64,000 nucleotides of DNA from an uncultured Bacteroidales bacterium. GTDB lineage: Bacteria; Bacteroidota; Bacteroidia; Bacteroidales; Paludibacteraceae. The translations under genes were made by a program, and so were the position numbers. How positions within the stretch are numbered: position 1 is the first letter of the stretch; every line of letters begins with the position of its first letter. The stretch covers positions 65,983-129,982 of the forward strand of contig CACZFM010000011.1 of assembly GCA_902780495.1 (NCBI GenBank), in the 5' to 3' direction. Positions 50,483 through 64,000 of the stretch are shown piece after piece. The notes beneath the pieces are model-generated. The model was not told the DNA's origin. It searched no databases and saw nothing but the letters and a program-made list of their open reading frames with translations.

Positions 50483-50490
50483 TTTGAGTT

Positions 50491-51798: not shown

Positions 51799-51819
51799 TC
51801 CGTTTATTCCCTGATTGCT

Positions 51820-52431
51820 ATGATTACTTCAGCCCAATTTGTTATCTCCTCTCCCGATGTTGCTATGTGTCCGAAGTCGGCATTGCCCGAATATGCTTTC
51901 ATCGGACGTTCCAATGTGGGCAAGTCCAGCCTCATTAATATGCTGTGCCGCAATCCTAAGTTGGCAAAGACCAGTCAGAAACCCGGCAAGACCCTGCTTA
52001 TTAACCATTTCCTGATTAACGGTGAAGCGCAGGCATCGCGCCCGTGGCATTTGGTGGACCTGCCCGGATATGGCTTTGCACAGACGTCGTTGACGGAGCG
52101 GGAGAAACTGCGGACGATGATTGAGCGTTACTGCCTGCATCGCGAACCCTTGGTTTCTATGTTCGTGCTCATTGATTGCCGGCTCGCACCGCAGAAAGTG
52201 GATTTGGAGTTTATGCAATGGTTGGGCGAGAACGAAGTGCCCTTTGCGATTGTCTTTACCAAGATTGACAAGGTCGGGCGTGGGCGTTTGAGTGAGAATA
52301 TCGGTGCCTACAAACTCAAACTCAGCGAAGTATGGGAAGAGTTACCGCCTATGTTCCTTACCTCGGCGGAGAAAGGGCAGGGCAGGGACGAATTGGTGGA
52401 ATATATCGAAACAATCAATAGCAATTTATAA
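51820..52431 (+). CDS. engB: ribosome-biogenesis GTPase EngB/YsxC
   Basis: G1 [11 protein letters not shown]3 DLPGYG and G4 TKIDK. Confidence 0.9.
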
Positions 52432-52441
52432 CCTTGCTGCC

Positions 52442-53005
52442 ATGATTTGGGATGACAACGAAGATATTCGCCTGATTACTTGCCTTAACGAACGCAAGGC
52501 GGTGCAGTCGGCATTGGATGACTGCCGCGAAGAGCGACGGCCGTATGTCTTTGTCACCAACACCATGCGCGAAGTGCTGCGCCTTAATCGTATTCTTGTG
52601 CCTGTAACAATGTTGGAGGAAGAAGTGTATAAGGCAGAGATTTGTACCTATTTGGCGCGCAAAACGGGCGCGACGATTCTCTTGTTGCCCGCCAATGATT
52701 ATGGCTCACATGCCCGCAACAACCTCAATCGTATCGTCACGCATATCCGTTCCGTGGCGGAGCGTACGGGCGAGGATATTCATTATGAACTCTTGACGGC
52801 AAAGAAAGACAGTTTCTCGCTTGTGAAAGAGTGTATTGAGCGGCAGCGCGATTTCGGTCATCAGTTGTTGTTGCTCACGGCCAGCCGCGAATATGGCTTG
52901 GATGATATCCTTTTCGGCCCGCCCGAACGCTTGGCGGTGCGAAGGAGTCAGGTCCCTGTCATGTTGGTGAATCCGCGTGCCGACCTCTTCTCCCTTTGCG
53001 ACTGA
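52442..53005 (+). CDS. hypothetical protein (possibly universal-stress-protein-like)
   Basis: 187-aa ORF from the ATG at 52442. Resemblance to a USP-type alpha/beta fold is weak. Confidence 0.45.
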   Translation: MIWDDNEDIRLITCLNERKAVQSALDDCREERRPYVFVTNTMREVLRLNRILVPVTMLEEEVYKAEICTYLARKTGATILLLPANDYGSHARNNLNRIVTHIRSVAERTGEDIHYELLTAKKDSFSLVKECIERQRDFGHQLLLLTASREYGLDDILFGPPERLAVRRSQVPVMLVNPRADLFSLCD

Positions 53006-53038
53006 TAATCATTCCGTTATACATACTCTTTTTGCCTT

Positions 53039-53929
53039 ATGAAGAAAAATGTAGCACTTGTCCTTGCCAGCGGAGGCGCACGCGGATTGGCGCATATCGG
53101 AGCCATTGAAGAACTCCAGAGGCGCGGTTATAGAATCACTTCTATTGCCGGATGTTCCATTGGAAGTCTTATCGGTGGTATCTATGCTGCCGGCAAAATA
53201 GCCGAGGCGCACGATTGGTTTACTTCCCTCAACCGGCAGCAGGTTCTCTCGCTTACGGATTTCTCTTTCGGTCTTAGCCATATCGTCAAGGGAGAAAAGG
53301 TGTTACATGCTATTCAGCAGTGGGTTCCCGATTGCTTGATTGAGGATTTGCCTATACCTGCCGCTTTTGTCGCTACGGATTTGATTAATTCTGAGGAAGT
53401 TGTCTTCCGTTCAGGCAGTCTCTTTCGGGCTATTAGAGCATCGATATCTATTCCGATGTGTTTTAAGCCGGTGGACTATAATGGAACCATTCTTGTTGAT
53501 GGCGGATTGGTCAATCCTTTCCCGCTTAACCTTGTGCAGCGCCATGAAGGAGATATCCTTGTGGGAATCAATATCTCCGGCCGTAGCCGTATGCCCGAAG
53601 CCCGTGTCATAGGTGGGTCGCCTGCGTTCTTCGATAAGTTGGGACGTATTGGGGATAGGGCAGAGGAGATGTGGAATCATGTGCGGCAAGAGATGGAACA
53701 GACCAAACATTCTCGCGGATTGGATTATATCTCTTTGGTCAATCGCACGATTGATTTGCAGATTCAGGCTTCGTGTCGTCTTATGACGCAGATGATGAAA
53801 CCGGATGTCTTGGTGGAGATGGCGCAGGATGCTTATACCACGTTCGATTTTGACAAAGCTTCCGAGATTATTGACCAGGGGCGCTTGCTTATGTCTCAAG
53901 CCCTTGACCGTTACGAGCAACAAAGCTAA
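53039..53929 (+). CDS. patatin-like phospholipase
   Basis: Oxyanion SGGARG, nucleophile elbow GCSIG, and the catalytic Asp in VDGGLVNP. Confidence 0.88.
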   Translation: MKKNVALVLASGGARGLAHIGAIEELQRRGYRITSIAGCSIGSLIGGIYAAGKIAEAHDWFTSLNRQQVLSLTDFSFGLSHIVKGEKVLHAIQQWVPDCLIEDLPIPAAFVATDLINSEEVVFRSGSLFRAIRASISIPMCFKPVDYNGTILVDGGLVNPFPLNLVQRHEGDILVGINISGRSRMPEARVIGGSPAFFDKLGRIGDRAEEMWNHVRQEMEQTKHSRGLDYISLVNRTIDLQIQASCRLMTQMMKPDVLVEMAQDAYTTFDFDKASEIIDQGRLLMSQALDRYEQQS

Positions 53930-53940
53930 TCTTGTATCCA

Positions 53941-53984
53941 TAGTCCTACTAGTCTAACTAGAACACTAGTCTCATTAGTCCAAC
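53941..53984. repeat. tandem repeat, five units of about 9 bp, TAGTCNNAC
   Basis: tagtcctac tagtctaac tagaacac tagtctcat tagtccaac. It ends 29 nt upstream of the -33 box at 54013. Confidence 0.85.
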
Positions 53985-54012
53985 AATAAATCCACAAAAA
54001 ACTGCAGATTTA

Positions 54013-54044
54013 TTTGGTTATTTCACAAAAAAGCATTACCTTTG
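54013..54044 (+). promoter_or_regulatory. Bacteroidetes-type promoter P1 (TTTG, 20 nt, TAccTTTG) of the glycan operon leader
   Basis: tttggttatttcacaaaaaagcattacctttg. Confidence 0.7.
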
Positions 54045-54305
54045 CAGCGAATTTGAAACACTCTCGTCCTCTCTCACGGACGTTAAACCAGAGGGCACTG
54101 GGCTCAACAGTGTAAAAAAGAAAAACTATTCCCCACTGCAAAAAAATCATAAAACATTTGGTCAGTTCAAAAAAAAGCAGTACCTTTGCACCCGCAAACT
54201 CACGCTGGGGTGTCTGCATAGATGTCACAGGTGAGGGCGCAGACATATTGAATGGCGTTTGCTAACGCTTGTTTTTGACTTTCTGAAAACTAGGAATCTT
54301 CAGAT
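54045..54305 (+). promoter_or_regulatory. conserved 5' leader RNA motif, copy L2 (hairpins 54065-54082 and 54096-54112, then GTAAAAAAG), interrupted by a partial duplication
   Basis: Aligns with 21161-21300. An extra block of about 120 nt (54121-54240) carries a second promoter and a diverged copy of the gtgagggcgc segment. Confidence 0.6.
54157..54188 (+). promoter_or_regulatory. Bacteroidetes-type promoter P2 inside the leader
   Basis: tttggtcagttcaaaaaaaagcagtacctttg. Confidence 0.6.
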
Positions 54306-54554
54306 TTGTTGTTCGAAAACAAGTAGTGGTAGATGCTCATGGGTGTATAATTACGCCCGCGTGTATTTTTGTATCTAATATACAACGTAACGATACGCGC
54401 GTGTGTTCATATACACGGCGTGGGTTTCTGCATTGCTTATTCGACAACAAGGGTTTTCCTAGTACCTCAGAAAGCGGATAAGCAAGAGAAGAAATCCGCG
54501 TTTTATTTGACTGCCGGAAACAAAGTTTTCCCCGTCTTGACAAGGATTTGGCAA

Positions 54555-54585
54555 CCGCCATCTATGTCGAGGCGGGGATTTTTTT
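54555..54585 (+). terminator. intrinsic-terminator-like hairpin inside the leader, about 50 nt before the first gene
   Basis: ccgcc (54555-54559) pairs with ggcgg (54571-54575), followed by gga and seven T (54579-54585). Confidence 0.5.
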
Positions 54586-54635
54586 GTTGGTGTTGAGAGA
54601 TAATACACTCATAATAAGTTAAAGAAAATATTGGA

Positions 54636-55952
54636 ATGAATACCATAGGTGTGGTAACATATAAGAAAGAGAGCTTGTTTGATCCGGTTGGAAGAATTTG
54701 TGTTATGGGAGATAGAATCTTCCGTGCTATTTCTTGTGGATATGAGGAAAAAGTTCTATCTTTTTTATCATCGGATTTGTTCAAAGAGTTGCGAAATAGA
54801 AATTGGATTGTAGACACATGGATAGCAGAGGACGTTAAGATTGATAATTGTAAATTAATCCTTGAACATGAAAAGCTTACATGCATTTGTCCTGATGTCT
54901 GGACATTCAGTCAATGGGTGGATGCCGCAAAGTTTTATATTGAACTTCACGATTATTGCATTAATAATGGCGGTACAGTAAATGATGCTCGTCCTAGCAA
55001 TATCGTGTTCCAGAATGGAAAGCCTATATTTATTGATTTTGGCAGTTTAATTAAGTTGGATGAAGATATAAGATTAAATTGGAGTAGAGATTTCTATATA
55101 TCATTTCTTCAGACGATTTCTTATTTGTCTGCTAGAGAGTATTTCTATGCATTTGCGTGGGCAAATAATGCTTATTGTTATTACATTGACAACCAGATAC
55201 TTCCGTCGAAGCGTATAGAGGATTCATTGGACTTCTATAGAACCTATCGGCATGTGATTAAATCTTATGATGTCTGTCGGCGTCAAAAACAAGCTCACAT
55301 CAGAGTGAGATTATACTCTACGGTAGCGTTTATAAAATTTTGTAATAAAATTGCCCGATGGTTATTTAACAAGAAAATAGATTGGAATTTATTCAAAATT
55401 ACAGCATTATATAAAGCCCCATCCTTATCGTGCATTGAGAGAATAGGATTGCCTTATTCTCTATCTGATATTCGGTCAATACATGAAATACATAACTTAT
55501 CTATAGTCCGTGAATTAACTACAATAAAGTCGCGTTTCCATATTAAGCGAATGCTGATGTATGGGAATGTCGGGCTATCTGAAATGAAGAGTGTTGCAGA
55601 ATCGACTAATATGGAAATTATAGTTGTCAGCCCAGACTTGGTTTACACTGATACTTTGTACCGCAACATAAAAAAGTGTGGTTTAAATATTCATGTGACA
55701 TGTGCAAACTTGCGTTTGGAATTGCGACAAAATGTACTAAACGATATAGCATCGGATATAGTATATATTCCGGAGAATAATCCATCATTCTTTCGTATGT
55801 CTCCTGTAGAATTATGTGCAGCGGTGCAAAAAGTTTCATCACGAGTAATGTTACCCACAAATTTGTATAGTCAAATAGCTTTACAAAATATGGGATTTAG
55901 CACTCAGGGGCAGTGTGATAATTATTTAATTTTAGAAAAATGTCAAGCATAA
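54636..55952 (+). CDS. hypothetical protein: N-terminal protein-kinase-like fold plus C-terminal Rossmann-like region
   Basis: NDARPSNIVF (DxxxxN catalytic loop) followed 11 aa later by IFIDFGS (DFG-like). The C-terminal 140 aa has a MYGNVG glycine-rich turn. AT-rich gene. Confidence 0.55.
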   Translation: MNTIGVVTYKKESLFDPVGRICVMGDRIFRAISCGYEEKVLSFLSSDLFKELRNRNWIVDTWIAEDVKIDNCKLILEHEKLTCICPDVWTFSQWVDAAKFYIELHDYCINNGGTVNDARPSNIVFQNGKPIFIDFGSLIKLDEDIRLNWSRDFYISFLQTISYLSAREYFYAFAWANNAYCYYIDNQILPSKRIEDSLDFYRTYRHVIKSYDVCRRQKQAHIRVRLYSTVAFIKFCNKIARWLFNKKIDWNLFKITALYKAPSLSCIERIGLPYSLSDIRSIHEIHNLSIVRELTTIKSRFHIKRMLMYGNVGLSEMKSVAESTNMEIIVVSPDLVYTDTLYRNIKKCGLNIHVTCANLRLELRQNVLNDIASDIVYIPENNPSFFRMSPVELCAAVQKVSSRVMLPTNLYSQIALQNMGFSTQGQCDNYLILEKCQA

Positions 55953-56923
55953 TGAAAAATATGAAACAATTGATATTAACTATTTTACGAAGAGGTTGGC
56001 ATCTTGTTTCCCGGCCAACACGTATCATCGCCAAAATCATCGTAAAATATAATCCCGATAAATGCCCTGATAAGTGGTATTTAAAGTTACAATGGGAAAA
56101 CTCGCATGATTATAAGCTTAATCTGAAGAACCCCAAAACCTTAAGCGAAAAAATAGTCTGGTTAAAATTATATGATAGAAAACCGCTATATACTGAATTA
56201 GTTGACAAATACAAAGCAAAATTCTGGCTATCTTCAAATTTTGGAAATGAGCATATCATACCAACTATTAAGCAATATAAAAGAGTTGATGATATTAATT
56301 GGGAAGAATTGCCCAATGAATTTGTGATAAAATGCAATCATGATAGTGGAAGTGTCTATATTTGTCGGGATAAAACAAAAGGTGTCTTGTATGATAAGCA
56401 CATGAAGTCCTTATCTATTCATGAGGTCGAGATCCAATTGCGAGAAGCTCTGACTAAAAACTATTATCTCCCCTGCCGTGAATGGCCTTATAAAAATGTA
56501 GTACCATGCATTATCGTTGAGAAACTTATGCTACAAAAGAGCGGGGAATTACCAAATGACTATAAATTGTTTTTTATCAATGGTGAATTCCAATTCGTTT
56601 ATTTGTCCTATGCAAGAGAAAGTATAGATGATCGTTGTACGTACGATGGAAATTGGAATCGTCTTCCGTTTGTGTATGTTGAAAAACAAACATATAGAGA
56701 TGGCATAAACACCGCTGTTGCTGAATGCCCTCAATCATTCCAAGAGATGATAAAGTTCGGAAAAGAAATTGCTAAAAACTTCAAATTTGTCCGTATAGAT
56801 TTTTATGATATAGACGGCAAAATGTATTTTGGTGAGATTACTCCATTTCATAGCGCAGGATGCGCTGAATTCTTTCCTGAGAAATACGATTTAATCTTTG
56901 GAGAAAAATTAAAACTTTCTTAA
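55940..56923 (+). CDS. ATP-grasp amidoligase, TupA-like family
   Basis: FVIKCNHDSGSVYIC, NDYKLFFINGEF and FVRIDFYDIDGKMYFGEITPFHSAG. Alternative start at 55952 (TAATG overlap). Confidence 0.75.
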   Translation: MSSIMKNMKQLILTILRRGWHLVSRPTRIIAKIIVKYNPDKCPDKWYLKLQWENSHDYKLNLKNPKTLSEKIVWLKLYDRKPLYTELVDKYKAKFWLSSNFGNEHIIPTIKQYKRVDDINWEELPNEFVIKCNHDSGSVYICRDKTKGVLYDKHMKSLSIHEVEIQLREALTKNYYLPCREWPYKNVVPCIIVEKLMLQKSGELPNDYKLFFINGEFQFVYLSYARESIDDRCTYDGNWNRLPFVYVEKQTYRDGINTAVAECPQSFQEMIKFGKEIAKNFKFVRIDFYDIDGKMYFGEITPFHSAGCAEFFPEKYDLIFGEKLKLS

Positions 56924-56924
56924 T

Positions 56925-58028
56925 ATGAAGTTCCCAAATAAATATCTACGTAACTTGAGGCCGTATAAGTTGGCTTCTCACAAAGTGTGGGCTGTTGCTC
57001 CGGAAAAACGTAAGGAAATCTTAAAATTGGATTGGAATGAGGCAACCATCCCACCAACACCTTTAGTGATGGAGCGGATAGAAGCACTGCTGAAAGAGCC
57101 ATCATTCTTCAATCTCTATCCGACAACATATAACGACGAGTTACTATCGCTGTTGGCGCAGTACGTGGAGTTACCCAAAGAGAACATTCAGTACTTCGGC
57201 AGTTCAGATGTGCTCCATGAGTATATCTGCAAGGCTTTCATTAGCGTGGGAGATCCTGTGATGATATTAGGTCCGAGTTATGATAATTTCCGCTTAACAT
57301 GCCAAGCCAATGGAGCCGATGTGTATTTCTCGTATTACAATGACGATTTTACGTTTGATACAGAGCGGTTCGAGAATGATATTATCACACGCGAACCGGC
57401 TGTAGTTTATATCTGCAATCCGAACAATCCCACCGGCAATGTGCATTCAAAAGAGTATATTGAGCACTTATTGCAGGAATATCCGGATACATTGTTCTTA
57501 ATAGATGAAGCCTATTACGAGTTTTCGGGTATCACGGTCAAAAATCTGGTTTTGAAATATGACAATATCCTCATCTCTCGTACGATGTCTAAGGCATTTG
57601 CATTGGCAAATTTCCGTTTGGGCTATTTGATTGCCGGAAAAGATAATGTGCAATTTATCAACAAGATACGTAATCCGAAGAACTTGAGCACGTTTGCACA
57701 AGTTGCTGGATGTGCAGCATTGAGTGATACGCAATATATGTGGAATTATGTGGAAGAAGTGCATCGCGGCAAGGATTATTTTGCGGAAGCTATGCAGAAG
57801 TATGCAGATAGATTGAAGGTGCATCCAAGTCATGGTAATTTTACGCTGATTGAATTCAAGACGTATGAAGATAAGATTGAGCTATTGAACCACTTAGCAG
57901 ATAATAATATTTTTGTGCGTGATACTACACAAGCGTCAATGGTACGCAACTGCTTCCGCATAACAATAGGAACAGTTGAGCAGATGAAAAGAATAATTGA
58001 TGCAATAGAGATATTCTATGCAAAATAA
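56925..58028 (+). CDS. PLP-dependent class I/II aminotransferase-fold enzyme (HisC/CobD-like aminotransferase or phospho-amino-acid decarboxylase)
   Basis: NPNNPTGN, and SRTMSKAFALANFRLGY with the Schiff-base Lys. Confidence 0.8.
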   Translation: MKFPNKYLRNLRPYKLASHKVWAVAPEKRKEILKLDWNEATIPPTPLVMERIEALLKEPSFFNLYPTTYNDELLSLLAQYVELPKENIQYFGSSDVLHEYICKAFISVGDPVMILGPSYDNFRLTCQANGADVYFSYYNDDFTFDTERFENDIITREPAVVYICNPNNPTGNVHSKEYIEHLLQEYPDTLFLIDEAYYEFSGITVKNLVLKYDNILISRTMSKAFALANFRLGYLIAGKDNVQFINKIRNPKNLSTFAQVAGCAALSDTQYMWNYVEEVHRGKDYFAEAMQKYADRLKVHPSHGNFTLIEFKTYEDKIELLNHLADNNIFVRDTTQASMVRNCFRITIGTVEQMKRIIDAIEIFYAK

Positions 58029-58689
58029 AAAAGAAAAGATAGCATTATTCGATTTTTGCGACACTTTGGTTAGTTTTCAAACTGCCAATGAGTATGTCCG
58101 ATTCTATATCAAACATCACGCGTCGTTTGCTGTTAAATTAAGACATATTTGTTATTTACTTATGTCGATAACAGGGCTTGTTTCAAGGATGGAAAATAGA
58201 GCACCTGACAAAAACATCAGAAAAAGAATGCTGCTGTGGCAATTAAAAGGTTGTCCTATAAAAAGGATGGAACAAGCGGCTATGGAATATTATCAGCAGC
58301 GCATAAAACCTTGTTTAATAATAGAAACGATTCATGAATTAACCCGATTGCAGAAAGAAGGATGGCGCATTTTGATTGTGAGTGGTGGATATGATTTGTA
58401 TATCAATCATTTTGCTCTCGAGTTCGGAATTTCCGGAAATGATGTTATTTCAAATCATCTTGTGTTTATCAATGGGATTTTCTCAGGGAGATATGATGTA
58501 GATTGCATGGGCAGCAAAAAAGTAGAAATATTAAATGACAAATTTAATCGCAAGAACTATGATGTAATTGCGTATAGTGATTCGGAAAGTGATTTGCCTA
58601 TGCTACTATGGGCAGACACGGCTATCGTTATATCTAAATCATGGGCGAAAAATTACAATTTTCAAGAAATAAGGATACCAACTTTATAG
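58018..58689 (+). CDS. HAD-IB-like hydrolase with an atypical motif I
   Basis: Motif I reads ALFDFCDTLV, with Cys where the Asp+2 general acid normally sits. SGGYD and YSDSESDLPML are the later motifs. Confidence 0.7.
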   Translation: MQNKKEKIALFDFCDTLVSFQTANEYVRFYIKHHASFAVKLRHICYLLMSITGLVSRMENRAPDKNIRKRMLLWQLKGCPIKRMEQAAMEYYQQRIKPCLIIETIHELTRLQKEGWRILIVSGGYDLYINHFALEFGISGNDVISNHLVFINGIFSGRYDVDCMGSKKVEILNDKFNRKNYDVIAYSDSESDLPMLLWADTAIVISKSWAKNYNFQEIRIPTL

Positions 58690-59610
58690 ATGAAGAAGTT
58701 CGCAATATATACAGCACTTATTGGAGGATACGACAGTATTCAACAACCGAAAGTCATTGACGATCAATTCGACTATTACTTGTTTACGGACGATATACAA
58801 GAAAAGGAAATCGGCATTTGGAAAGTACGTAGGGTGGAATACACGAATACAGATAAAACACGTATTGCTCGATACGTAAAAACGCATCCGCACCGTTTGC
58901 TTCCGGAATATGATGCTACACTTTGGATGGATGCCAATGTCCAAATTATATCTTCAAAAATATACGACCGTTTTATTTATTTGTCATCAAGTAATATTGA
59001 TGTGGCAAGTATATATCACCCTTTTCGTGATTGTATATATGATGAAGCCTTTGAGGTTTCGTATAGCAAAAGATATGGAAGATTGGAGCATGATGTTATA
59101 GCTATCAATTGGTGTCATTATCTTTTCCAAGAGTGTTATCCTTCTCATAATGGCTTATTTGAAACAAACATCTTGTTTAGAAAAAATACTGAGTCCGTAA
59201 ATGTGGCTAATGATTTATGGTGGGAATGTATCAATGACTTTTCGAAAAGAGATCAACTGTCATGTAATTATGTATTATGGAAGTATCAATTGAAACTAGA
59301 TTATTTCCTCCCTCAAGGAGAACATGCACAGCATTCATATGAAGTACGCTACATACCTCATGAACAAGTGTCTCGTCGGAAATTAGTAAATGCAGATGTC
59401 CTTGAACAATGGAGGTATAAGACAGTTAATTTATCTAATTGGACTTTGAAAATGTGGCAACGCGTTTGGAGAAAAGCATCTGAATCAAACAAGCCATTTG
59501 CCATACTCAACGTATATGGACTTGCTATGGGATTATTATGTTCTCCTCATTTACTTTTTAATGTAATTAAGCATCGAATAACGAAAATAATCAATAACTA
59601 TGAGCGATAA
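58690..59610 (+). CDS. DUF616-type glycosyltransferase
   Basis: FAIYTALIGGYD N-terminus, with YYLFTDD. Confidence 0.7.
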   Translation: MKKFAIYTALIGGYDSIQQPKVIDDQFDYYLFTDDIQEKEIGIWKVRRVEYTNTDKTRIARYVKTHPHRLLPEYDATLWMDANVQIISSKIYDRFIYLSSSNIDVASIYHPFRDCIYDEAFEVSYSKRYGRLEHDVIAINWCHYLFQECYPSHNGLFETNILFRKNTESVNVANDLWWECINDFSKRDQLSCNYVLWKYQLKLDYFLPQGEHAQHSYEVRYIPHEQVSRRKLVNADVLEQWRYKTVNLSNWTLKMWQRVWRKASESNKPFAILNVYGLAMGLLCSPHLLFNVIKHRITKIINNYER

Positions 59611-60697
59611 ACAACCTAAAGCAAGAGTGTTGGCATATTATCTGCCACAATTTCATCCGATACCAGAGAATGATGAATGGTGGGGAAAAGGATTTACGGA
59701 GTGGACGAATGTCGGAAAAGCGAAATCGCTTTTCCCAGGACATTATCAGCCACATGTTCCAGCTGATTTGGGCTATTATGATCTGCGTGTGCCGGAAACA
59801 CGTGAAGCACAAGCTCAATTGGCTCGTGAAGCAGGAGTGGAAGGATTTGTGTATTGGCATTATTGGTTCGGCAATGGAAAACGGCTATTAGAGCGTCCAT
59901 TCAATGAGGTCCTGACTTCCGGAAAACCGGATTTCCCGTTTGCACTCGCATGGGCAAATGAAACATGGAGCGGTAGTTTTCACGGACTGAAAGAAGGCAA
60001 CGTTTTAATAGAACAAACCTACCCGAGAGATGAGGATTTTATTACACACTTTAATACCGTGTTACCGGCATTCAAAGATAAACGGTATATCACTTGTGAT
60101 GAAAAACCGATGTTCTTTATATACAAACCGGAATGGATTGACGATATAATGAGACACTTCATAGAGTTATGGCAACAACTGGCTAAAGAAAATGGCTTGA
60201 AAGGAATCTATTTCGTTGCTATGTTAGATTCTATGTATGAAGAAGAATTGTCAAAGAAGAGATACAACCAAATGATGAAACTTGGGTTTGATGCAGTTAA
60301 TTCAATGAACTTATATCACGGTGACCTTGGATTAAAATGGCGTCTGTGGAATAAGTTTTTTAACAAAAAACTCAAATTATTCCCCCGCATGATGCCTTAT
60401 GATATGAATAGGATGGCAGGGGCATTGGATGCTGTTGAAAACGTATTCCCGATGATAACTTCTAATTGGGATCATACTCCTCGTTCCGGCAAAAGAGGAC
60501 TTGTGCTAAGTGGCTGTACACCGGGTGCTTTTAAGAAAAACTTGCATACCTTTATTGAGCGAATCTCCAACAAACCTCTAGAGCATCGTATCTTATTACT
60601 TAAGTCGTGGAATGAATGGGCGGAAGGTAACTATGTGGAGCCGGATTTGAAATATGGGCATCAGTATTTAGATGCTCTGAAAGAAGAAATCTATTGA
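59600..60697 (+). CDS. WbsX-like (GH99-like fold) glycosyltransferase family protein
   Basis: AYYLPQFHPIPENDEWWGKGFTEWTNV. Confidence 0.75.
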   Translation: MSDKQPKARVLAYYLPQFHPIPENDEWWGKGFTEWTNVGKAKSLFPGHYQPHVPADLGYYDLRVPETREAQAQLAREAGVEGFVYWHYWFGNGKRLLERPFNEVLTSGKPDFPFALAWANETWSGSFHGLKEGNVLIEQTYPRDEDFITHFNTVLPAFKDKRYITCDEKPMFFIYKPEWIDDIMRHFIELWQQLAKENGLKGIYFVAMLDSMYEEELSKKRYNQMMKLGFDAVNSMNLYHGDLGLKWRLWNKFFNKKLKLFPRMMPYDMNRMAGALDAVENVFPMITSNWDHTPRSGKRGLVLSGCTPGAFKKNLHTFIERISNKPLEHRILLLKSWNEWAEGNYVEPDLKYGHQYLDALKEEIY

Positions 60698-60708
60698 GAA
60701 GATTAAAT

Positions 60709-61677
60709 ATGCCGATACTCTCCATTATAATTCCTGTATATAACGTCGAAAAGTATCTTCGTCGCTGTTTGGATAGCGTCTTGTCACAATCTTTCCGCGA
60801 CTACGAGCTTCTACTTGTTGATGACGGAAGTAGCGATCAGTCCGGTGCTATATGCGATGAATATGCGGTTCGTGATGAGCGGATACGTGTATTTCACAAA
60901 TCCAATGGGGGTGTCTCATCTGCTCGCAATGTGGGATTAGAGCACTCTAAAGGAGAATGGATTTATTTCGTGGATGCAGATGATGAAGTGTTAGCGGATG
61001 GCATCTCTTCCATGTTAGGGGCAGCAAGTGGATACGAGGCAGTGTTAGCAAGTTTTGAAAGTTGCAATAGGGACGGAGAAAGATTATATCAAACCACGAT
61101 AGGAACTAATAAGATTATGTCCCGAGAGGATAGTATTCGAACTTTATATGGAGAATCGAAAACGCTCGTAGGTATGTGGGGATGGTTATGGGTACGTTTA
61201 TTCAGGAATGAGATAATCAAAAAGAATAACTTGAGGTTTGATACAAATGTTAGCTATAATGAAGATGGTTTGTTTATTGCAGAGTATATATGTCATATAA
61301 GCACCCCTGTTCGTTATGTGGATTCTTTAGTATATCGATACTATGAAACCGATACAAGCGTCATGGAGTCCACAAAACGCTATTTTAATCCAAAGGTATT
61401 AACGAGTTTCGCTTCGTTAGTTCTGATGTATCAGTGCATTGCAAAGGATGCGGAATTGGATACAGAACTACTACGCATTGCTAAAGATGGTATCATCAAC
61501 CGCTATTTGATGATACGCGGACAGATGGAACAACATAATGCGGTTGATAAAGTTGTCCTCAAAGATTTCCGTCATCAATGCGTCCAAGAATGTGGGATTC
61601 TGTTTGTGGTTGGATATATGATACGGCGGGCAAAACGAAGAATAACGAATTTAATAAAACGAAAACTGAAAATATAA
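60709..61677 (+). CDS. family-2 glycosyltransferase
   Basis: LSIIIPVYNVEKYLRRCLDSVLSQS, LLVDDGSSDQS and FVDADD. ATG at 60709 is preferred over the TTG at 60694. Confidence 0.85.
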   Translation: MPILSIIIPVYNVEKYLRRCLDSVLSQSFRDYELLLVDDGSSDQSGAICDEYAVRDERIRVFHKSNGGVSSARNVGLEHSKGEWIYFVDADDEVLADGISSMLGAASGYEAVLASFESCNRDGERLYQTTIGTNKIMSREDSIRTLYGESKTLVGMWGWLWVRLFRNEIIKKNNLRFDTNVSYNEDGLFIAEYICHISTPVRYVDSLVYRYYETDTSVMESTKRYFNPKVLTSFASLVLMYQCIAKDAELDTELLRIAKDGIINRYLMIRGQMEQHNAVDKVVLKDFRHQCVQECGILFVVGYMIRRAKRRITNLIKRKLKI

Positions 61678-61681
61678 GAAT

Positions 61682-63346
61682 ATGATACGTACGGCAGTCA
61701 TAATGGCAGCAGGAATGGGAACGAGATTCGGTAAATACACAGAACTCATTCCGAAAGGTTTTGTGAAAGTGAATGGCATTCCAATGGTAATTCAATCCAT
61801 TGAAACCCTTATCTCATGTGGTATAGAACGCATTATTATCGGAACTGGCTATCACAAAGAGGCCTATGAAGCTTTATGCGAAGATTATCCGGAAGTAATC
61901 TGTTGTCATAGCCCTCGATATGCAGAAACGAATTGTCTATATACGTTATGGAACTGCCGGAATCTAATCGGTGATGAGGATTTCTTAATGTTGGATTCGG
62001 ACTTGATTTATGAACCCAAGGCTATCACAGAGCTTATTGAATGTAAATATCCCTCTGCGATTTTGACAACTTCGGTTAAAAAGTTCCAAGACTCATATTT
62101 TGTGGAGGAAGATAAAAGACATCGGTTTGTCAAATGGTCGAAAAACTATGGTGAGCTGAATGCCTGTGGAGAACTTATTGGTATTCACAAATTGAGCAAC
62201 AAGTTCTTCCGTGAAGTTTGCTGCGAGTTCGAAAGTGACTTGCTAAAAAATGAGCGCAGTAGTTATGAACCTTTCTTCCAAAAAGTATCGAATACGAAAT
62301 GCCCCATCTATATCCTCAAAATAGATGATTTGGAGTGGTATGAGATTGATGATGAGGCAGATTTGAAAGTGGCAGAACAGAGCGTACGTATAGAGCACAA
62401 ACGCCATACGTATCATACCGGAGTCAAAAACATGCTCAAAACGCCATATGTATGCTATCGTAATACGCGCTACTATGGCCATACGGAGAGAATAAATAAG
62501 GAAAATGCTGCATACTTATTAAATACGCTCAAAAAAGTATTTGAAGAAAACGGCATTGAACTTATTCTTGCTTATGGTACTTTACTTGGCGCAATCAGAG
62601 AACATGATTTCATAGGTCATGACAATGATATGGATACTATGATTTGGGGTAAACACATGCAAAAATGCTTGGACCTGGCTCCTGAATTAGAGAAATATGG
62701 TATCAAATTGGAATGCTATGTATTACCATGGATTTTCACGTATAGTTATAAAGGTGTAACTTGTGACATAGATCTCATCAATGAACCAATTTACCCCTTA
62801 AATAAACGTTATTGTCTCTTAGAATCGCAATATATTCAGCGTTCGTTTTTTGAACACACGGAGAAATATGAGTTCCAAGGTGAAATGCATAATGTTCCTG
62901 CACATCCGGAAGTCCTTTTGGAATACCACTACGGTAAGAACTGGCGTATTCCGGGAGGACCACACGCAAGATTGCAGTCCAAGTTATTCTTCTGGTATTA
63001 TATTGATAGACAGATTCAACGAGTAAAACGTTTCTTGAAACGTAAACTAGATAAAGAACATATCCAGTTCAAAGAAGTTAATGTGGCGCGCGTATTGGCT
63101 CACATGAAGAATATAGATGAGTTTACACTGAATGACATGCTTGCAAAATACAAAGCAGAGATGCCGGATGAATATAATAGATGGATTGTACAATTCCTGC
63201 ACACCGGCAATGCAGAGGAAATCATTGCAAAACAGATGTTCCAATATATGTATGAGCGTCACGGAAACTTTGGCGCGATTCTGACAAAATTTGACGGAAA
63301 CATGGAGCATTATAAAGATTTTCCATGGCATTGGGTAAAAGGTTAA
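61682..63346 (+). CDS. bifunctional LicC-like nucleotidyltransferase / LicD-family phosphotransferase fusion
   Basis: N-terminal AVIMAAGMGTRFG NTP-transferase signature. C-terminal half has AYGTLLGAIREHDFIGHDNDMD, the LicD signature. Confidence 0.8.
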   Translation: MIRTAVIMAAGMGTRFGKYTELIPKGFVKVNGIPMVIQSIETLISCGIERIIIGTGYHKEAYEALCEDYPEVICCHSPRYAETNCLYTLWNCRNLIGDEDFLMLDSDLIYEPKAITELIECKYPSAILTTSVKKFQDSYFVEEDKRHRFVKWSKNYGELNACGELIGIHKLSNKFFREVCCEFESDLLKNERSSYEPFFQKVSNTKCPIYILKIDDLEWYEIDDEADLKVAEQSVRIEHKRHTYHTGVKNMLKTPYVCYRNTRYYGHTERINKENAAYLLNTLKKVFEENGIELILAYGTLLGAIREHDFIGHDNDMDTMIWGKHMQKCLDLAPELEKYGIKLECYVLPWIFTYSYKGVTCDIDLINEPIYPLNKRYCLLESQYIQRSFFEHTEKYEFQGEMHNVPAHPEVLLEYHYGKNWRIPGGPHARLQSKLFFWYYIDRQIQRVKRFLKRKLDKEHIQFKEVNVARVLAHMKNIDEFTLNDMLAKYKAEMPDEYNRWIVQFLHTGNAEEIIAKQMFQYMYERHGNFGAILTKFDGNMEHYKDFPWHWVKG

Positions 63347-63369
63347 TAATCTAATAAACAAACGATAAC

Positions 63370-63582
63370 ATGTTGAAATACACTAAAAGACTAATCTCCG
63401 ACATTCGTTTCTGGTGTCAGGAATGCAAGTTTCGCCACAAAGAATACGCCGAATTAGAGCGCATTGAAAGTGAAGCAGAGTATCATCATCCGATGGCTGG
63501 TTTCGGTTACTACCAGACCATGAAACGCAATCGTGCCGAACGCAAACGCCTTCACGCTGAGCAACGTGCTGCCATCAAGTAA
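63370..63582 (+). CDS. small hypothetical protein (70 aa, basic C-terminus)
   Basis: ORF only. No motif recognised. Confidence 0.35.
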   Translation: MLKYTKRLISDIRFWCQECKFRHKEYAELERIESEAEYHHPMAGFGYYQTMKRNRAERKRLHAEQRAAIK

Positions 63583-63731
63583 TCTCTGCGTCGGGATAAT
63601 TGTGCCTTTGGGGCTAAGAATTGATTTTTTGCAGCATTATTATAGAAACGCGCCTTCCTCAAACTTGGCGCGATTTCGGTCTGTTATCGGTTCTACCAAC
63701 CTCTGCTTAAGGTCGGCGTAACCTCTGCTGG

Positions 63732-63764
63732 AAAGTATTGCGAAAGTATTGTGAGGGTATTGCG
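63732..63764. repeat. tandem repeat, three 11-bp units
   Basis: aaagtattgcg aaagtattgtg agggtattgcg. Confidence 0.75.
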
Positions 63765-63876
63765 GGAGCAGTTACGGAAAAATGCACTTTTTTGAAAAAA
63801 AGTTGCATTTCAGGTGATAGATTTTGCCTCTTTTTTGCCTTATATATGGAGGGGTATATGTAAGAGGATGGGTAGT

Positions 63877-63983
63877 TTATTGGTAGATGGTCCCGTGATG
63901 GTCGCATTTTTACTGGTATTTTGAGGCTGCCTACCTTACTCACAGGAGTATATCTATCGTCCCGTAGGTCGCTCGTAGGGCGC
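63877..63983. repeat. modular intergenic repeat, copy E, inverted relative to A/C (M3rc 63877-63912, M4rc 63925-63943, M2rc 63953-63977)
   Basis: ttattggtagatggtcccgtgatggtcgcattttta, ggctgcctaccttactcac and tctatcgtcccgtaggtcgctcgta. Module order differs from copy A. Confidence 0.8.
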
Positions 63984-64000
63984 AGGTAAGATTGATAGGA

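Follow-up and report, generated by a model that had tools for sequence, protein, structure and literature searches.

A probable glycan-tailoring operon in a rumen Paludibacteraceae genome belongs to a genus-wide family of cassette loci

Introduction

Polysaccharide pathways that depend on the Wzm/Wzt transporter need neither Wzx nor Wzy, and in Escherichia coli O9a the protein WbdD combines a kinase with a methyltransferase domain. Canonical HAD phosphatases use the residue at Asp+2 as general acid. In Campylobacter jejuni HS:2, Cj1438C and Cj1435 amidate a uronic acid with an amine phosphate and then remove the phosphate (PMC11800397). For TupA-like enzymes the general prediction is that they attach amino-acid or amine decorations (PMC13419641), and galacturonosyltransferase activity of plant MUCI70 is seen in vitro (PMC10576798). 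Here we describe a cassette in which proteins of these kinds are encoded side by side, in the 97%-complete genome of an uncultured rumen Paludibacteraceae/Bacteroidales bacterium assembled from a metagenome.

Gene content and base composition

The cassette lies in the window, that is, the whole stretch of 64,000 nucleotides that was analysed (Table 1). A preliminary description had placed nine tightly packed genes, more AT-rich than their flanks, between 54636 and 63346. Nine real genes are indeed present, but the ORF listing has only eight large plus-strand ORFs in that interval; the ninth, a 70-aa gene, begins 23 nt after gene 8, just past the end given. The packing was as described (junction overlaps of 13, 11, 11, and 4 nt, gaps of 0 to 4 nt), and all the domain calls were reproduced (ATPgrasp_TupA, Aminotran_1_2, HAD-IB, TOD1_MUCI70 or DUF616, WbsX, GT2, and NTP_transf_3 plus LicD). 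The compositional contrast is borne out by both the GC profile, 0.34 to 0.41 in the cassette (54.5 to 63.5 kb) versus 0.49 to 0.53 upstream and 0.45 to 0.50 downstream, and GC3, for which seven of the eight large genes fall at the 2nd to 8th percentile of the genome's ORFs and the flanking genes at the 38th to 90th. Transcript data consist of a few 151-nt RNA contigs covering genes 1 and 2 only.

Table 1. Features of the cassette and its borders, in window coordinates
Feature	Coordinates	Strand	Basis or position
Dispersed promoter-bearing repeat (unit A)	53942..54121	+	between patatin gene and leader promoter
Conserved promoter block (…TTTGgtcagttcaaaaaaaagcagTACCTTTGCA), upstream of leader	54140..54195	+	sequence and repeat matches
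Structured leader RNA, ~310 nt, intrinsic terminator at end	54191..54508	+	fold, covariation
Second terminator-like hairpin and T-run	54527..54589	+	predicted hairpin, ~50 nt 5' of first start codon
Gene 1, 438 aa, protein-kinase-like N-domain and methyltransferase-like C-domain (WbdD-like domain composition)	54636..55952	+	fold matches
Gene 2, 327 aa, TupA-like ATP-grasp amidoligase	55940..56923	+	PF14305, E = 1e-54
Gene 3, 367 aa, HisC/CobD-family PLP enzyme, predicted amino-alcohol phosphate maker	56925..58028	+	Aminotran_1_2
Gene 4, 223 aa, HAD-IB-like, Cys at Asp+2 (motif FDFCDT)	58018..58689	+	TIGR01490, 104 bits
Gene 5, 306 aa, TOD1/MUCI70 (DUF616) glycosyltransferase-like, candidate uronic-acid transferase	58690..59610	+	PF04765, E = 4.6e-16
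Gene 6, 365 aa, WbsX-family glycosyltransferase	59600..60697	+	PF14307, E = 1.5e-127
Gene 7, 327 aa, TTG start, GT2 glycosyltransferase	60694..61677	+	PF00535, E = 2.6e-37
Gene 8, 554 aa, nucleotidyltransferase (LicC/NTP_transf_3-like) and LicD phosphotransferase fusion	61682..63346	+	domain matches
Gene 9, 70 aa, small basic helical-hairpin protein	63370..63582	+	conserved, last in cassette
Tandem repeat, 11-nt unit, 3.1 copies	63731..63764	.	repeat search
Dispersed genome-wide repeat, right edge of low-GC, low-divergence block	63793..63952	.	repeat matches

The locus, the upstream genes, and the ~7 kb read past the window edge all lack genes for Wzx, Wzy, an initiating transferase, and UpxY, and the locus and its flanks contain no multi-pass membrane protein gene. 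The same functions are encoded on other contigs of the genome: Bac_transf genes on C1, C9, and C2, Polysacc_synt (Wzx) on C9 with weaker matches on C11 (~42 kb upstream of the window) and C3, and Wzy_C on C7 and C9. The whole genome has a single NusG-family gene and no paralogue of it, which means that UpxY is missing from the entire genome as well as from the locus. These results uphold both the reported lack of flippase, polymerase, initiating transferase, and UpxY and the proposal that the operon probably does not build a complete polysaccharide by itself.

The leader and the small last gene frame variable cassettes

The structured leader proposed upstream of the operon is real and strongly structured (fold z = -7.75 versus shuffles). 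It occurs in 48 of 121 genomes of the genus, with as many as 7 copies in a single genome and identities of 68 to 80%, and the source genome has a second copy on C6. The structure is supported by strong covariation: in an alignment of 35 copies, 96.8% of cells pair, compared with 40 to 49% when partner columns are slid; 190 cells are compensatory, where shuffles give 54; and of the 21 long-range pairs, 15 have changed on both sides. A search of Rfam with the leader returned no family at E<=1. Its terminator stem (GCGGAT at 54474-54479 with ATCCGC at 54494-54499) is followed by a U-run. Of the aligned copies, just some (L013, L014, L043, L028, and L033) keep the second hairpin.

The promoter block, which we take to be a Bacteroidetes -33/-7 promoter, spans ~45 to 55 nt, recurs at 88 to 98% identity at dozens of sites, both in the source genome and in its relatives, and aligns 5' of most leader copies shown in the alignment. 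A Bacteroidetes-type TTTG...TACCTTTGCA promoter-like block is also found inside unit A, copies of which are 83 to 88% identical at C7:5233-5424, C9:2154-2337, and C4:60439-60625; the genome has over 25 further partial copies. Only ~9 nt separate the aligned terminator tail from the first start codon in L052 and L055, leaving no space for a separate promoter. Transcription from the leader promoter would have to pass the leader terminator, and the leader may gate expression of the genes behind it. Other leader copies, too, are followed first by glycan genes (UbiA, FrhB-like, GLF, Acyl_transf_3, pyruvyl transferase, GT4, and HisC-like).

At the other end, gene 9 is 71 to 75% identical at the amino acid level to genes at the 3' end of cassettes L009 to L012, and its relatives were found at 27 loci in rumen Paludibacteraceae/Bacteroidales genomes. 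A gene of this kind stands last in every cassette of the class. The family comprises 501 or more protein clusters, all without a Pfam domain; the model shows two long helices (pLDDT 89.5), and a structural search with it found no relative. At 15 of the 27 loci a leader lies 2.3 to 9 kb upstream, and the cassettes in between differ, being AT-rich and rich in glycosyltransferases. Promoter, ~310-nt leader, variable AT-rich glycan cassette, and 70-aa gene form a frame that recurs across the genus, and unrelated glycan gene sets are carried in it, both elsewhere in the source genome and in other members of the genus. Far from being a one-off island, the cassette belongs to a family of such loci that spans the genus.

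Predicted decoration of a glycan begun elsewhere

Within the HisC/CobD family, transaminase and decarboxylase chemistry are inseparable by sequence. Gene 3 scores 270.8 bits against the hisC model (just below the cut-off of 276.55) and 156 bits against CobD, and its closest relatives of solved structure are HisC enzymes; histidinol dehydrogenase (hisD) was not found in the source genome. Its product would be an amino-alcohol phosphate, most likely serinol phosphate made from dihydroxyacetone phosphate, with ethanolamine phosphate or aminopropanol phosphate, formed via decarboxylation, as alternatives. A paralogue (69% amino acid identity) belongs to the C15 glycan locus, and gene 2 has paralogues on C6, C15, and C9.

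Genes for the PLP enzyme, the HAD protein with Cys, and TupA are adjacent on C15 and, in other lineages, in L077, L080, L081, and L082; the gene 2 type is collinear with PLP and HAD genes in other lineages, and the gene 4 type adjoins a PLP gene in five of them. In L077 the trio is followed by a TOD1/MUCI70 gene, and the set sits directly 3' of a Wzx flippase gene. TupA and the gene 5 type occur together in the window, L009, L059, and L077. The PLP-HAD-TupA set matches the uronic-acid amidation set of C. jejuni HS:2, a likeness drawn without direct comparison to the Cj1435-1438 sequences. Gene 5 would first add a uronic acid; by analogy with Cj1438C and Cj1435, the gene 2 ATP-grasp would join the amine phosphate to its carboxylate as an amide, and the gene 4 HAD would then strip the phosphate. 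The last step is uncertain, since Cys stands at Asp+2 in all 63 gene 4 homologues found (61 fit FDFC[DEN]T and 2 read YDFCGT) and the family thus lacks the Asp+2 general acid. L058, which has the HisC-like gene and neither HAD nor TupA, fits a HAD needed on the amide route only.

A second route would end in a phosphodiester. The N-terminal 237 aa of gene 8 share 86% identity with a stand-alone NTP transferase encoded directly after the HisC-like gene of L058. PLP, cytidylyltransferase, and phosphotransferase genes are adjacent in L058 (TagF-like) and on C15 (IspD-like and TagF-like), and the PLP and cytidylyltransferase pair is adjacent in L028. We infer, solely from gene neighbourhood in these other loci, that the nucleotidyltransferase of gene 8 acts on what gene 3 makes. 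It would form a CDP-activated amino-alcohol, from which the LicD domain would move phospho-amino-alcohol onto a sugar hydroxyl. Further sugars may be added by gene 7 and by gene 6, which is 70% identical at the amino acid level to a gene in cassette L057.

These same neighbourhoods, together with the fusion of the cytidylyltransferase to LicD in the window, the constant lack of the Asp+2 general acid in the HAD family, and the general prediction for TupA-like enzymes (PMC13419641), also suit a single route, in which the gene 3 product is solely CDP-activated and LicD-transferred to give a teichoic-acid-like phospho-amino-alcohol substituent, the ATP-grasp acylates its free amine with an amino acid or another carboxylate, and the HAD is not a phosphatase. 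We consider this quite unlikely, given that L077, L080, and L081 have the trio but no cytidylyltransferase or phosphotransferase, that in L077, L081, and L082 TupA is accompanied by a putative uronosyltransferase of the MUCI70 type or by genes of uronate/ulosonate pathways, and that C. jejuni provides an exact biochemical precedent for the trio. In our reading, the cassette probably installs both amino-alcohol amide and phospho-amino-alcohol decorations.

Gene 1 and the route of export

Gene 1 had no match in Pfam or NCBIfam. In Foldseek, the N half of its AlphaFold2 model (pLDDT 84) matches protein kinases and the C half matches class I methyltransferases. D117, N122, and D134 are invariant among 1200 cluster representatives of its homologues (HMMER, E<=1e-3), and the protein carries the invariant D-x4-N and DFG-type motifs. 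By predicted fold, this is the domain set of E. coli O9a WbdD, although gene 1 has a degenerate SAM motif (MYGNVG versus the family consensus DLAGNxG). Gene 1 would phosphorylate a hydroxyl of the glycan and may in this way cap its end.

The cassette might then feed an ABC-transporter-dependent (Wzm/Wzt) pathway, with gene 1 as a WbdD-like terminator whose phosphate cap at the non-reducing end is read by the Wzt_C domain encoded on C5. Two distant gene 1 relatives (P0005 and P0004) lie directly 3' of Wzt (ABC_tran plus Wzt_C) in ABC-transporter O-antigen-type loci, a slot that we take to be the WbdD position; the genome encodes a single Wzt that bears a Wzt_C domain (C5:59084-60331) and no other member of the gene 1 family; and L081, the context of a P4 homologue, also begins with an ABC_tran gene. 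However, no wzm or wzt lies in or near the cassette, the WbdD position on C5 is taken by a 481-aa protein unrelated to gene 1, the SAM motif is degenerate, and the PLP-HAD-TupA-MUCI70 set of L077 directly follows a flippase gene, so we regard a Wzm/Wzt role as unlikely. Most likely, the cassette attaches sugars and amino-alcohol decorations to a surface glycan begun elsewhere in the genome, with lipid-carrier initiation, export, and any polymerisation supplied by genes on other contigs. That the operon extends or decorates a glycan made elsewhere, as first suggested, would fit its three glycosyltransferases and two putative decoration modules.

Spread of the cassette through strains

Public metagenomes from four other independent studies were compared with the window as reference. 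The cassette differed at 7/9441, 9/8981, 5/6645, and 2/2726 positions, or 0.07 to 0.10%, while at equal depth the left flank diverged by 1.0 to 2.5% (one piece by 6.5%) and the right flank by ~1.1 to 1.6%. Divergence in the cassette is thus ~20-fold below that of both flanks, synonymous sites included. The contigs of the other samples break at the repeats on both sides, so the cassette may or may not occupy the same chromosomal site there. The switch from low to high divergence falls between 63825 and 63959. Both elements described downstream, the tandem array and then a copy of an intergenic repeat, are present at this border; the latter matches C19:10282-10441 at 98% identity, and over 20 partial copies of it occur in the genome, many at contig ends.

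The whole block was absent from every other species of the genus compared, and the left and right flanks are syntenic in none of the relatives examined. The idea of a simple indel between conserved flanks fails. The closest relatives of individual genes are in differently composed cassettes of other species (84 to 86% amino acid identity in L058 and 70% in L057).

Base composition says little here: every cassette with this frame in the genus has a GC content of 0.37 to 0.45, so AT-richness alone is weak evidence of transfer. An old, vertically inherited, and immobile block, AT-rich as glycan genes typically are and of low diversity through purifying selection or assembly bias, would agree with this lack of a foreign mark and with contigs that break at the flanking repeats. 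It is nevertheless very improbable in view of the ~20-fold deficit in four independent studies, the restriction of the block to one species among those compared, the flanks that are never syntenic, and the scattered closest relatives. The near-identical cassette beside diverged flanks, and its absence as a whole from relatives, favour the horizontal acquisition or spread that had been proposed. We read the cassette as recently swept, having spread almost unchanged through strains whose flanks are 1 to 2% apart. Rather than making a polysaccharide alone, it is probably an accessory glycan-tailoring operon, an allele-like member of a set of exchangeable cassettes found across the genus.

An AT-rich cassette, probably for glycan tailoring, with export and polymerization genes elsewhere

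Eight large plus-strand ORFs fill the interval between 54636 and 63346, joined by overlaps of 13, 11, 11, and 4 nt and otherwise separated by gaps of 0 to 4 nt. The preliminary description had counted nine genes in this interval; the packing stands but the count does not, as the ninth gene, which codes for a 70-aa protein, lies just beyond it, starting 23 nt past the end of gene 8. Every domain assignment made in that description was recovered with Pfam and NCBIfam. Its claim that the block is more AT-rich than its surroundings was borne out as well, with a GC content of 0.34 to 0.41 over 54.5 to 63.5 kb compared with 0.49 to 0.53 in the flanks (0.45 to 0.50 past the window edge). Seven of the eight large genes fall between the 2nd and 8th percentiles of GC3 among the ORFs of the genome (2.03 Mb, 47% GC, 97% complete), while the flanking genes, which are ordinary in kind, range from the 38th to the 90th. 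The window occupies C11:65983-129982 of this genome. Less extreme are the small gene 9 (35th percentile) and the HisC-like gene 3 (20th). The latter (56925-58028) has a GC of 0.405 and a GC3 of 0.45, above the GC3 of its neighbors (0.30 to 0.39), which fits a mosaic origin of the cassette.

The locus had also been described as a decorating cassette that is incomplete by itself, a reading that our searches supported and sharpened. Profile searches found no match to Polysacc_synt or Wzy_C in the locus or its flanks, and none of the cassette proteins has three or more predicted membrane segments. The missing functions are also absent from the ~7 kb past the window edge, and are encoded on other contigs instead. 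The NusG family is represented by a single gene in the whole genome, located on contig C6 and not in the locus; therefore, there is no UpxY-type antiterminator anywhere in the genome. Judging by the predicted functions of its genes, the cassette is of a known kind, an accessory glycan-tailoring operon that combines a putative Campylobacter jejuni-like amidation module with a Lic-like phosphotransfer enzyme.

Features of the window locus and of related loci (positions without a contig or locus name are those of the window; C, contigs of the same genome; L, loci)
Feature	Coordinates	Strand	Content
Upstream flank			murA-type enzyme, EngB-type GTPase, uncharacterized protein, patatin-like protein
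Promoter block	54140-54195		Bacteroidetes-type, …TTTG…TACCTTTGCA
Long-range helix of the leader	~54279-54312 with ~54444-54474		Many compensatory changes
Leader terminator	54474-54479 with 54494-54499		GCGGAT paired with ATCCGC, then U-run; invariant hairpin
Second terminator-like hairpin	54527-54589		Window copy; common to only some copies
Genes 1 to 8	54636-63346	+	Large ORFs
Gene 9	63370-63582	+	70-aa protein
Core of dispersed repeat	63793-63863		>20 copies in the genome; copies <300 nt from contig ends at C2:20-90, C10:33-97, C16:191-257, C25:51622-51692, C5:106366-106436
Downstream flank	~7 kb past window edge		DUF6175, other uncharacterized proteins, M6 peptidase
Second cassette of the genome	C6, L009 7491-16274	-	Leader 79% identical to window copy
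C15 locus	L070 4908-10471	-	Without leader
Initiating transferase	C1, C9, C2 only		Bac_transf; none in locus
Flippase	C9; weaker matches on C11 (~42 kb upstream of window) and C3		Polysacc_synt
Polymerase/ligase	C7, C9		Wzy_C
ABC exporter with glycan-end recognition	C5		ABC_tran + Wzt_C
Outside locus L077			Wzx, PLP, HAD, TupA, TOD1/MUCI70, … WbsX
Outside locus L080 (Synergistaceae MAG)			HAD, TupA, PLP
Outside locus L081			ABC ATPase, GT2, TupA, PLP, HAD, epimerase
Outside locus L082			AsnB+TupA fusion, PLP, HAD, CMP-sugar synthetase, KdsA-like, SIS
Outside locus L083			GT, PLP, HAD, uncharacterized 437-aa protein, PGA_cap, CapK-like ×2

The dispersed repeat found downstream of gene 9 has many copies at contig ends and is thus probably one of the main causes of assembly breaks.

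A predicted amidation module

In C. jejuni HS:2, Cj1437 converts dihydroxyacetone phosphate to serinol phosphate and Cj1436 converts phosphoserine to ethanolamine phosphate; with the C-terminal ATP-dependent domain of Cj1438, the amine phosphate amidates glucuronate in the growing chain, and the HAD enzyme Cj1435 afterwards strips the phosphate from the amide (PMC11800397). The window cassette likewise has a TupA-like ATP-grasp (gene 2; PF14305, E = 1e-54, full profile covered), a PF00155 PLP enzyme (gene 3), and a HAD protein (gene 4) next to one another and beside glycosyltransferases, a likeness of enzyme classes and gene adjacency rather than of aligned Cj sequences. The window ATP-grasp is a stand-alone protein, whereas that of Cj1438 is fused to a glycosyltransferase, and a single PLP enzyme takes the place of the two in C. 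jejuni. The host is a member of the Bacteroidales, and no Kps-type export genes are found at the locus.

Gene 3 matches Aminotran_1_2, with both hisC-like and CobD-like scores and a value just below the hisC equivalog cutoff; its nearest solved structures are HisC enzymes. No histidinol dehydrogenase (PF00815) was found in the 97%-complete genome, which suggests histidine auxotrophy. We rejected a role of gene 3 as the housekeeping hisC, since hisD is missing from the genome and the lone paralogue (69% amino acid identity) also belongs to a glycan locus, on contig C15. Both HisC/CobD-family PLP copies of the genome are thus in glycan loci, in keeping with a predicted role in making an amine phosphate rather than in histidine or cobalamin synthesis. 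The order of genes on C15 is an IspD-like cytidylyltransferase, the HisC-like enzyme, a HAD-IB protein (motif DFCGT), a TupA ATP-grasp, a TagF-like phosphotransferase, and a GT2; upstream of this module are an AraC-type regulator and two small ORFs.

The gene 4 protein (58018-58689) has the HAD-IB fold and the nucleophile Asp, with a Cys at Asp+2, the position of the general acid in HAD phosphatases, a residue that sets it apart from the C. jejuni enzyme. The same Cys is present in the C15 HAD protein and in 63 of 63 HAD homologues (P0157-P0219; FDFC[DEN]T in 61 and YDFCGT in the other 2), hence these proteins form a distinct HAD-IB subfamily. The gene of this Cys-HAD adjoins a HisC/CobD-like PLP gene on C15 and in all five outside loci examined, which come from five other lineages. 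The PLP-HAD pair is invariant across these five loci, its companion being a carboxylate-activating ligase, often joined by genes for the supply or transfer of an acidic sugar. The trio of TupA, PLP, and HAD genes is kept as a unit in several lineages. The TOD1/MUCI70 family, which includes gene 5, is found together with TupA at four loci. Galacturonosyltransferase activity in vitro is documented for the plant homologue MUCI70 (PMC10576798); by analogy, gene 5 is a plausible candidate for the transfer of the uronic acid.

A predicted phosphodiester route

Gene 8 codes for a 554-aa protein with an NTP_transf_3 domain (residues 5 to 121) followed by a LicD domain (residues 288 to 336), both above the Pfam cutoffs. 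In two other species (L058 3337-5133 and L028 2-1448), the gene right after the HisC-like one codes for a separate nucleotidyltransferase that is homologous to the N-terminal domain of gene 8, with DNA 78 to 83% identical to the first third of this gene. This adjacency implies that the same amine phosphate would be CDP-activated and transferred with the phosphate retained, a second, CDP-dependent exit that has no counterpart in the C. jejuni module. The pair is preceded in L058 by a TagF-like phosphotransferase, and neither HAD nor TupA genes are present there, which fits a requirement for HAD on the amide route only. From these gene contents we infer that the window cassette and the C15 locus would contain both exits for the amine phosphate, amide and CDP.

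As in the Lic phosphocholine pathway, an NTP_transf_3-type nucleotidyltransferase and LicD share an operon with a kinase-like gene, while the sister loci (L058 and C15) have TagF-like enzymes where the window has LicD, comparable to the CDP-alcohol systems of the TarI/TagF type. However, in the window the nucleotidyltransferase and the phosphotransferase are fused in one protein, gene 1 is not of the LicA type (no choline/APH-type kinase profile matched it in Pfam or NCBIfam), and there is no choline transporter gene in the locus. Gene neighborhood suggests that the fusion protein acts on an amino-alcohol phosphate supplied by the HisC-like enzyme rather than on choline.

Gene 1 and a possible Wzt-dependent pathway

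No Pfam or NCBIfam model matched gene 1, and a word-based search retrieved only five relatives, while HMMER recovered 1200 cluster representatives, mostly of 430 to 490 aa. The family has the invariant residues D117, N122, and D134, corresponding to a D-x4-N catalytic loop and a DFG-type Asp. In the AlphaFold2 model (pLDDT 84), the N-terminal half resembles protein kinases and the C-terminal half class I methyltransferases. The SAM motif kept by the family, DLAGNxG, is degenerate in the window copy (MYGNVG). The model places predicted protein-kinase-like and class I methyltransferase-like folds in a single protein, a putative match to the domain set of WbdD of Escherichia coli O9a, but with the domain order reversed (kinase first), a degenerate SAM motif, and no detectable sequence similarity to any named family. 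A role for gene 1 in the amine module was also considered and discarded, given that the 437-aa protein that follows HAD in L083 and the 481-aa protein on contig C5 are both unrelated to it.

The kinase/methyltransferase WbdD is encoded directly after Wzt. Two distant members of the gene 1 family occupy this very position, directly after a Wzt with a Wzt_C domain, in loci of the ABC-transporter O-antigen type, and the cassette could accordingly serve the ABC-transporter Wzt pathway encoded on C5, with a WbdD-like gene 1. However, the WbdD position on C5 is taken by an unrelated 481-aa protein, the amidation set of L077 is linked to a Wzx, and no ABC transporter genes adjoin the window locus. 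Considering the C5 protein and the coupling to Wzx, we rate this pathway as an unlikely destination for the product of the cassette. The C5 locus (L087; C5:48000-60331) is of the ABC-transporter type, and its Wzt gene, with Wzt_C, overlaps that of the 481-aa uncharacterized protein, which is followed by GT2, DegT, WbqC, and GT2 genes; there is no Wzm immediately upstream, where RuvC is found instead.

A structured leader RNA with its own terminator

That the cassette is preceded by a structured leader had been proposed from the sequence of the window and was confirmed, since this copy folds far better than its shuffles (z = -7.75). From the promoter block, the leader extends over about 310 nt to the terminator hairpin and its U-run. 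The alignment of 35 distinct copies (A4) shows long-range helices with many compensatory changes; 15 of the 21 long-range pairs have changed on both sides, and one of them is UA in 10 copies, GC in 10, AU in 9, and CG in 6, with no mismatches. In the proposed structure 96.8% of the cells pair, compared with 40 to 49% when the partner columns are slid, and compensatory cells number 190 versus 54 in shuffled alignments. Both leader terminators were taken from the alignment and the fold, and are missed by a simple scan because their loops exceed 8 nt. No Rfam 15 family matched the leader at E ≤ 1 (search of 50000-64000). Covarying structure, a 3' intrinsic terminator, and genes directly downstream give the leader the attributes of a terminator-bearing cis-regulatory element of the riboswitch or attenuator class.

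RNAalifold offers an alternative fold, an extended hairpin built from invariant sequence and running to the same U-run, with a local energy of about -36 kcal/mol in the window copy, compared with -7.6 for the bare 6-bp hairpin. The loop of the longer hairpin doubles as the 3' strand of the covarying helix, so that on topological grounds the two folds could not fully coexist. In two other loci (L052 and L055), the first start codon is about 9 nt past the aligned terminator tail, so transcription of these genes requires read-through of the terminator. RNA-seq data consisted of a few 151-nt contigs over genes 1 and 2 from two poly(A) libraries, too thin a coverage for leader termination. Our conclusion is that a genuine structured RNA precedes the cassette operons and probably gates them.

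The promoter-like block at 54140-54195 is repeated, over about 45 to 55 nt and with 88 to 98% identity, at dozens of sites in this genome and its relatives (for example, C4:142803-142859, C12:26-82, and C24:20874-20930). Over 53736-54202 the depth of metagenome contigs is more than 100 times that of neighboring bins, and assemblies break there. Contigs of three runs skip about 118 nt at 54048-54167, with sides of about 20 nt in a repeated region that make these joints unreliable; some copies or strains may lack a duplicated promoter unit there.

A family of cassettes framed by the leader and a small gene

A DNA search of relatives showed that what is conserved within the genus is part of the leader (54136-54504) and the small gene, which in other genomes bracket 3 to 7.5 kb of unrelated DNA. 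Of the 121 genomes sampled from the genus, 48 carry the leader, in as many as 7 copies each and in two copies in the genome studied here (C11 and C6); it was found in none of 16 genomes from other families of the order. Fifteen of the 27 loci with the small protein have a leader 2.3 to 9 kb upstream on the same strand. The leader-bounded cassettes (n = 17) have a GC of 0.37 to 0.43 and a gene content that varies by locus; only three encode a protein predicted to have at least three membrane segments. The C6 cassette comprises, in order, an uncharacterized protein, GT4, epimerase, TupA ATP-grasp, a weak MUCI70-like match, GT2, GT4, GT2, and a homologue of the small protein. A gene for an ORF6N-domain protein lies directly upstream of the leader in this cassette and in another locus (L010). 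Behind ten other copies of the leader, the first gene is nearly always a glycan gene (UbiA, FrhB-like, GLF, Acyl_transf_3, pyruvyl transferase, GT4, or HisC-like enzyme).

The protein encoded by gene 9 is basic and is modeled as two long helices (pLDDT 89.5). Its conservation at 71 to 75% identity in five related loci indicates a real coding sequence, and its start, so close behind the last enzyme gene, implies cotranscription. It matches no Pfam domain and lacks structural relatives, the fold search having given nothing below E = 6; the idea of a zinc ribbon was dropped on this result and because the cysteines are not conserved. Public data hold at least 501 clusters of this protein, and the closest relatives come from rumen MAGs (cattle, goat, sheep, and deer) of Paludibacteraceae or uncultured Bacteroidales. 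That it might act as a partner of the leader is speculation.

Population divergence and mobility

Public data from at least 10 studies include more than 20 runs with sequence near identical to the window. We compared the divergence of the cassette and its flanks in contigs of four metagenome runs, each from a different study and none from the likely source study of the window.

Divergence from the window in four metagenome runs (differences/bases, or percentage)
Run	Cassette (54415-63825)	Left flank (50000-54066)	Right flank (from 63959)
X10	7/9441	88/4067	143/9059
X5	9/8981	34/1526 + 18/1100	about 126/9083
X6	5/6645	15/781 + 96/1487	about 137/8936
X18	2/2726	1.0-2.5%, four pieces	about 1.1%

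Overall, divergence is 0.07 to 0.10% in the cassette, 1.0 to 2.5% in the left flank pieces (6.5% in one of them), and 1.1 to 1.6% on the right, and the contig depths of cassette and flanks match inside each run. The switch points fall in the multicopy promoter/leader region (54066-54415) and in the dispersed repeat (63793-63952). With divergence about 20-fold below that of both its neighbors, the cassette seems to have undergone a recent gene-specific sweep or to have spread horizontally from strain to strain; the contigs end at the flanking repeats, so that the chromosomal site is read in the window only.

The horizontal acquisition proposed earlier is supported by this low divergence, by the absence of the whole block from any other species in the DNA search of relatives, and by flanks that are never neighbors in relatives. 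The best relatives of single genes lie in cassettes of different composition, which points the same way: two adjoining genes of L058 match gene 3 and residues 1 to 237 of gene 8 with 84% and 86% identity, respectively, and a gene of another locus (L057) is 70% identical to gene 6. Likewise, the HisC-like and nucleotidyltransferase genes, adjacent in L058 and L028, are four genes apart in the window, which suggests module shuffling between cassettes. AT-richness, by contrast, is not diagnostic of a foreign origin, since the whole class of cassettes is AT-rich. A simple indel between conserved flanks was rejected, as the patatin gene and the DUF6175 block are on separate contigs in every relative and nothing else near either of them is syntenic. 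Metagenome contigs that skip about 9.7 to 9.8 kb were likewise discarded as empty-site joints, one of their sides being just 21 to 25 nt long and inside dispersed repeats.

Comparison with other systems and implications

The arrangement recalls the capsular loci of Bacteroides, where several variable AT-rich glycan loci per genome each lie behind a long untranslated leader. Those loci are headed by upxY/upxZ, whereas no UpxY-type NusG paralogue exists here; the window locus lacks wzx, wzy, and the initiating transferase; one conserved structured leader ending in a terminator is common to all loci; and a conserved 70-aa gene closes each of them. Leader elements that let polysaccharide operons pass terminators are known in EAR of Bacillus and in ops/JUMPStart with RfaH, which the window leader may resemble as a conserved structured RNA at the head of such operons. 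However, it has no sequence or Rfam relationship to them, bears its own conserved terminator, and is multicopy within a genome, being known from sequence alone. What is new is the organization: a shared covarying leader with a terminator, the lack of a NusG paralogue, a shared terminal microgene, and population data that indicate a sweep.

Tentatively, and with more doubt than confidence, we propose that the leader represents a new class of cis-regulatory RNA that in this rumen genus stands in for the UpxY/UpxZ system of Bacteroides as a two-state switch. One state would be the covarying long-range helix and the other the extended, much more stable terminator hairpin, and all exchangeable glycan cassettes of the genome would be under its control. 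The trigger would be either a metabolite or the conserved 70-aa helical-hairpin protein encoded at the cassette end, and the leader and the small gene would double as homology arms for cassette swapping and for sweeps through populations.

In the Bacteroides model each locus has its own antiterminator; the glycosyltransferase-only cassettes described here lie instead between a common leader RNA and a common small gene, in a genome without a NusG paralogue. As a unit, the amidation module of C. jejuni appears to be widespread and to have a HAD subfamily of its own. The population data suggest that an allele for a surface glycan has recently swept through a gut commensal, a pattern expected under phage or host-immunity pressure. 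Two surface decorations are predicted, an amide between a uronic acid and an amino-alcohol, and a phospho-amino-alcohol substituent. Paludibacteraceae/RF16-like bacteria are common in the rumen, and for these hosts, known from MAGs alone, the locus gives a concrete and testable glycan prediction.
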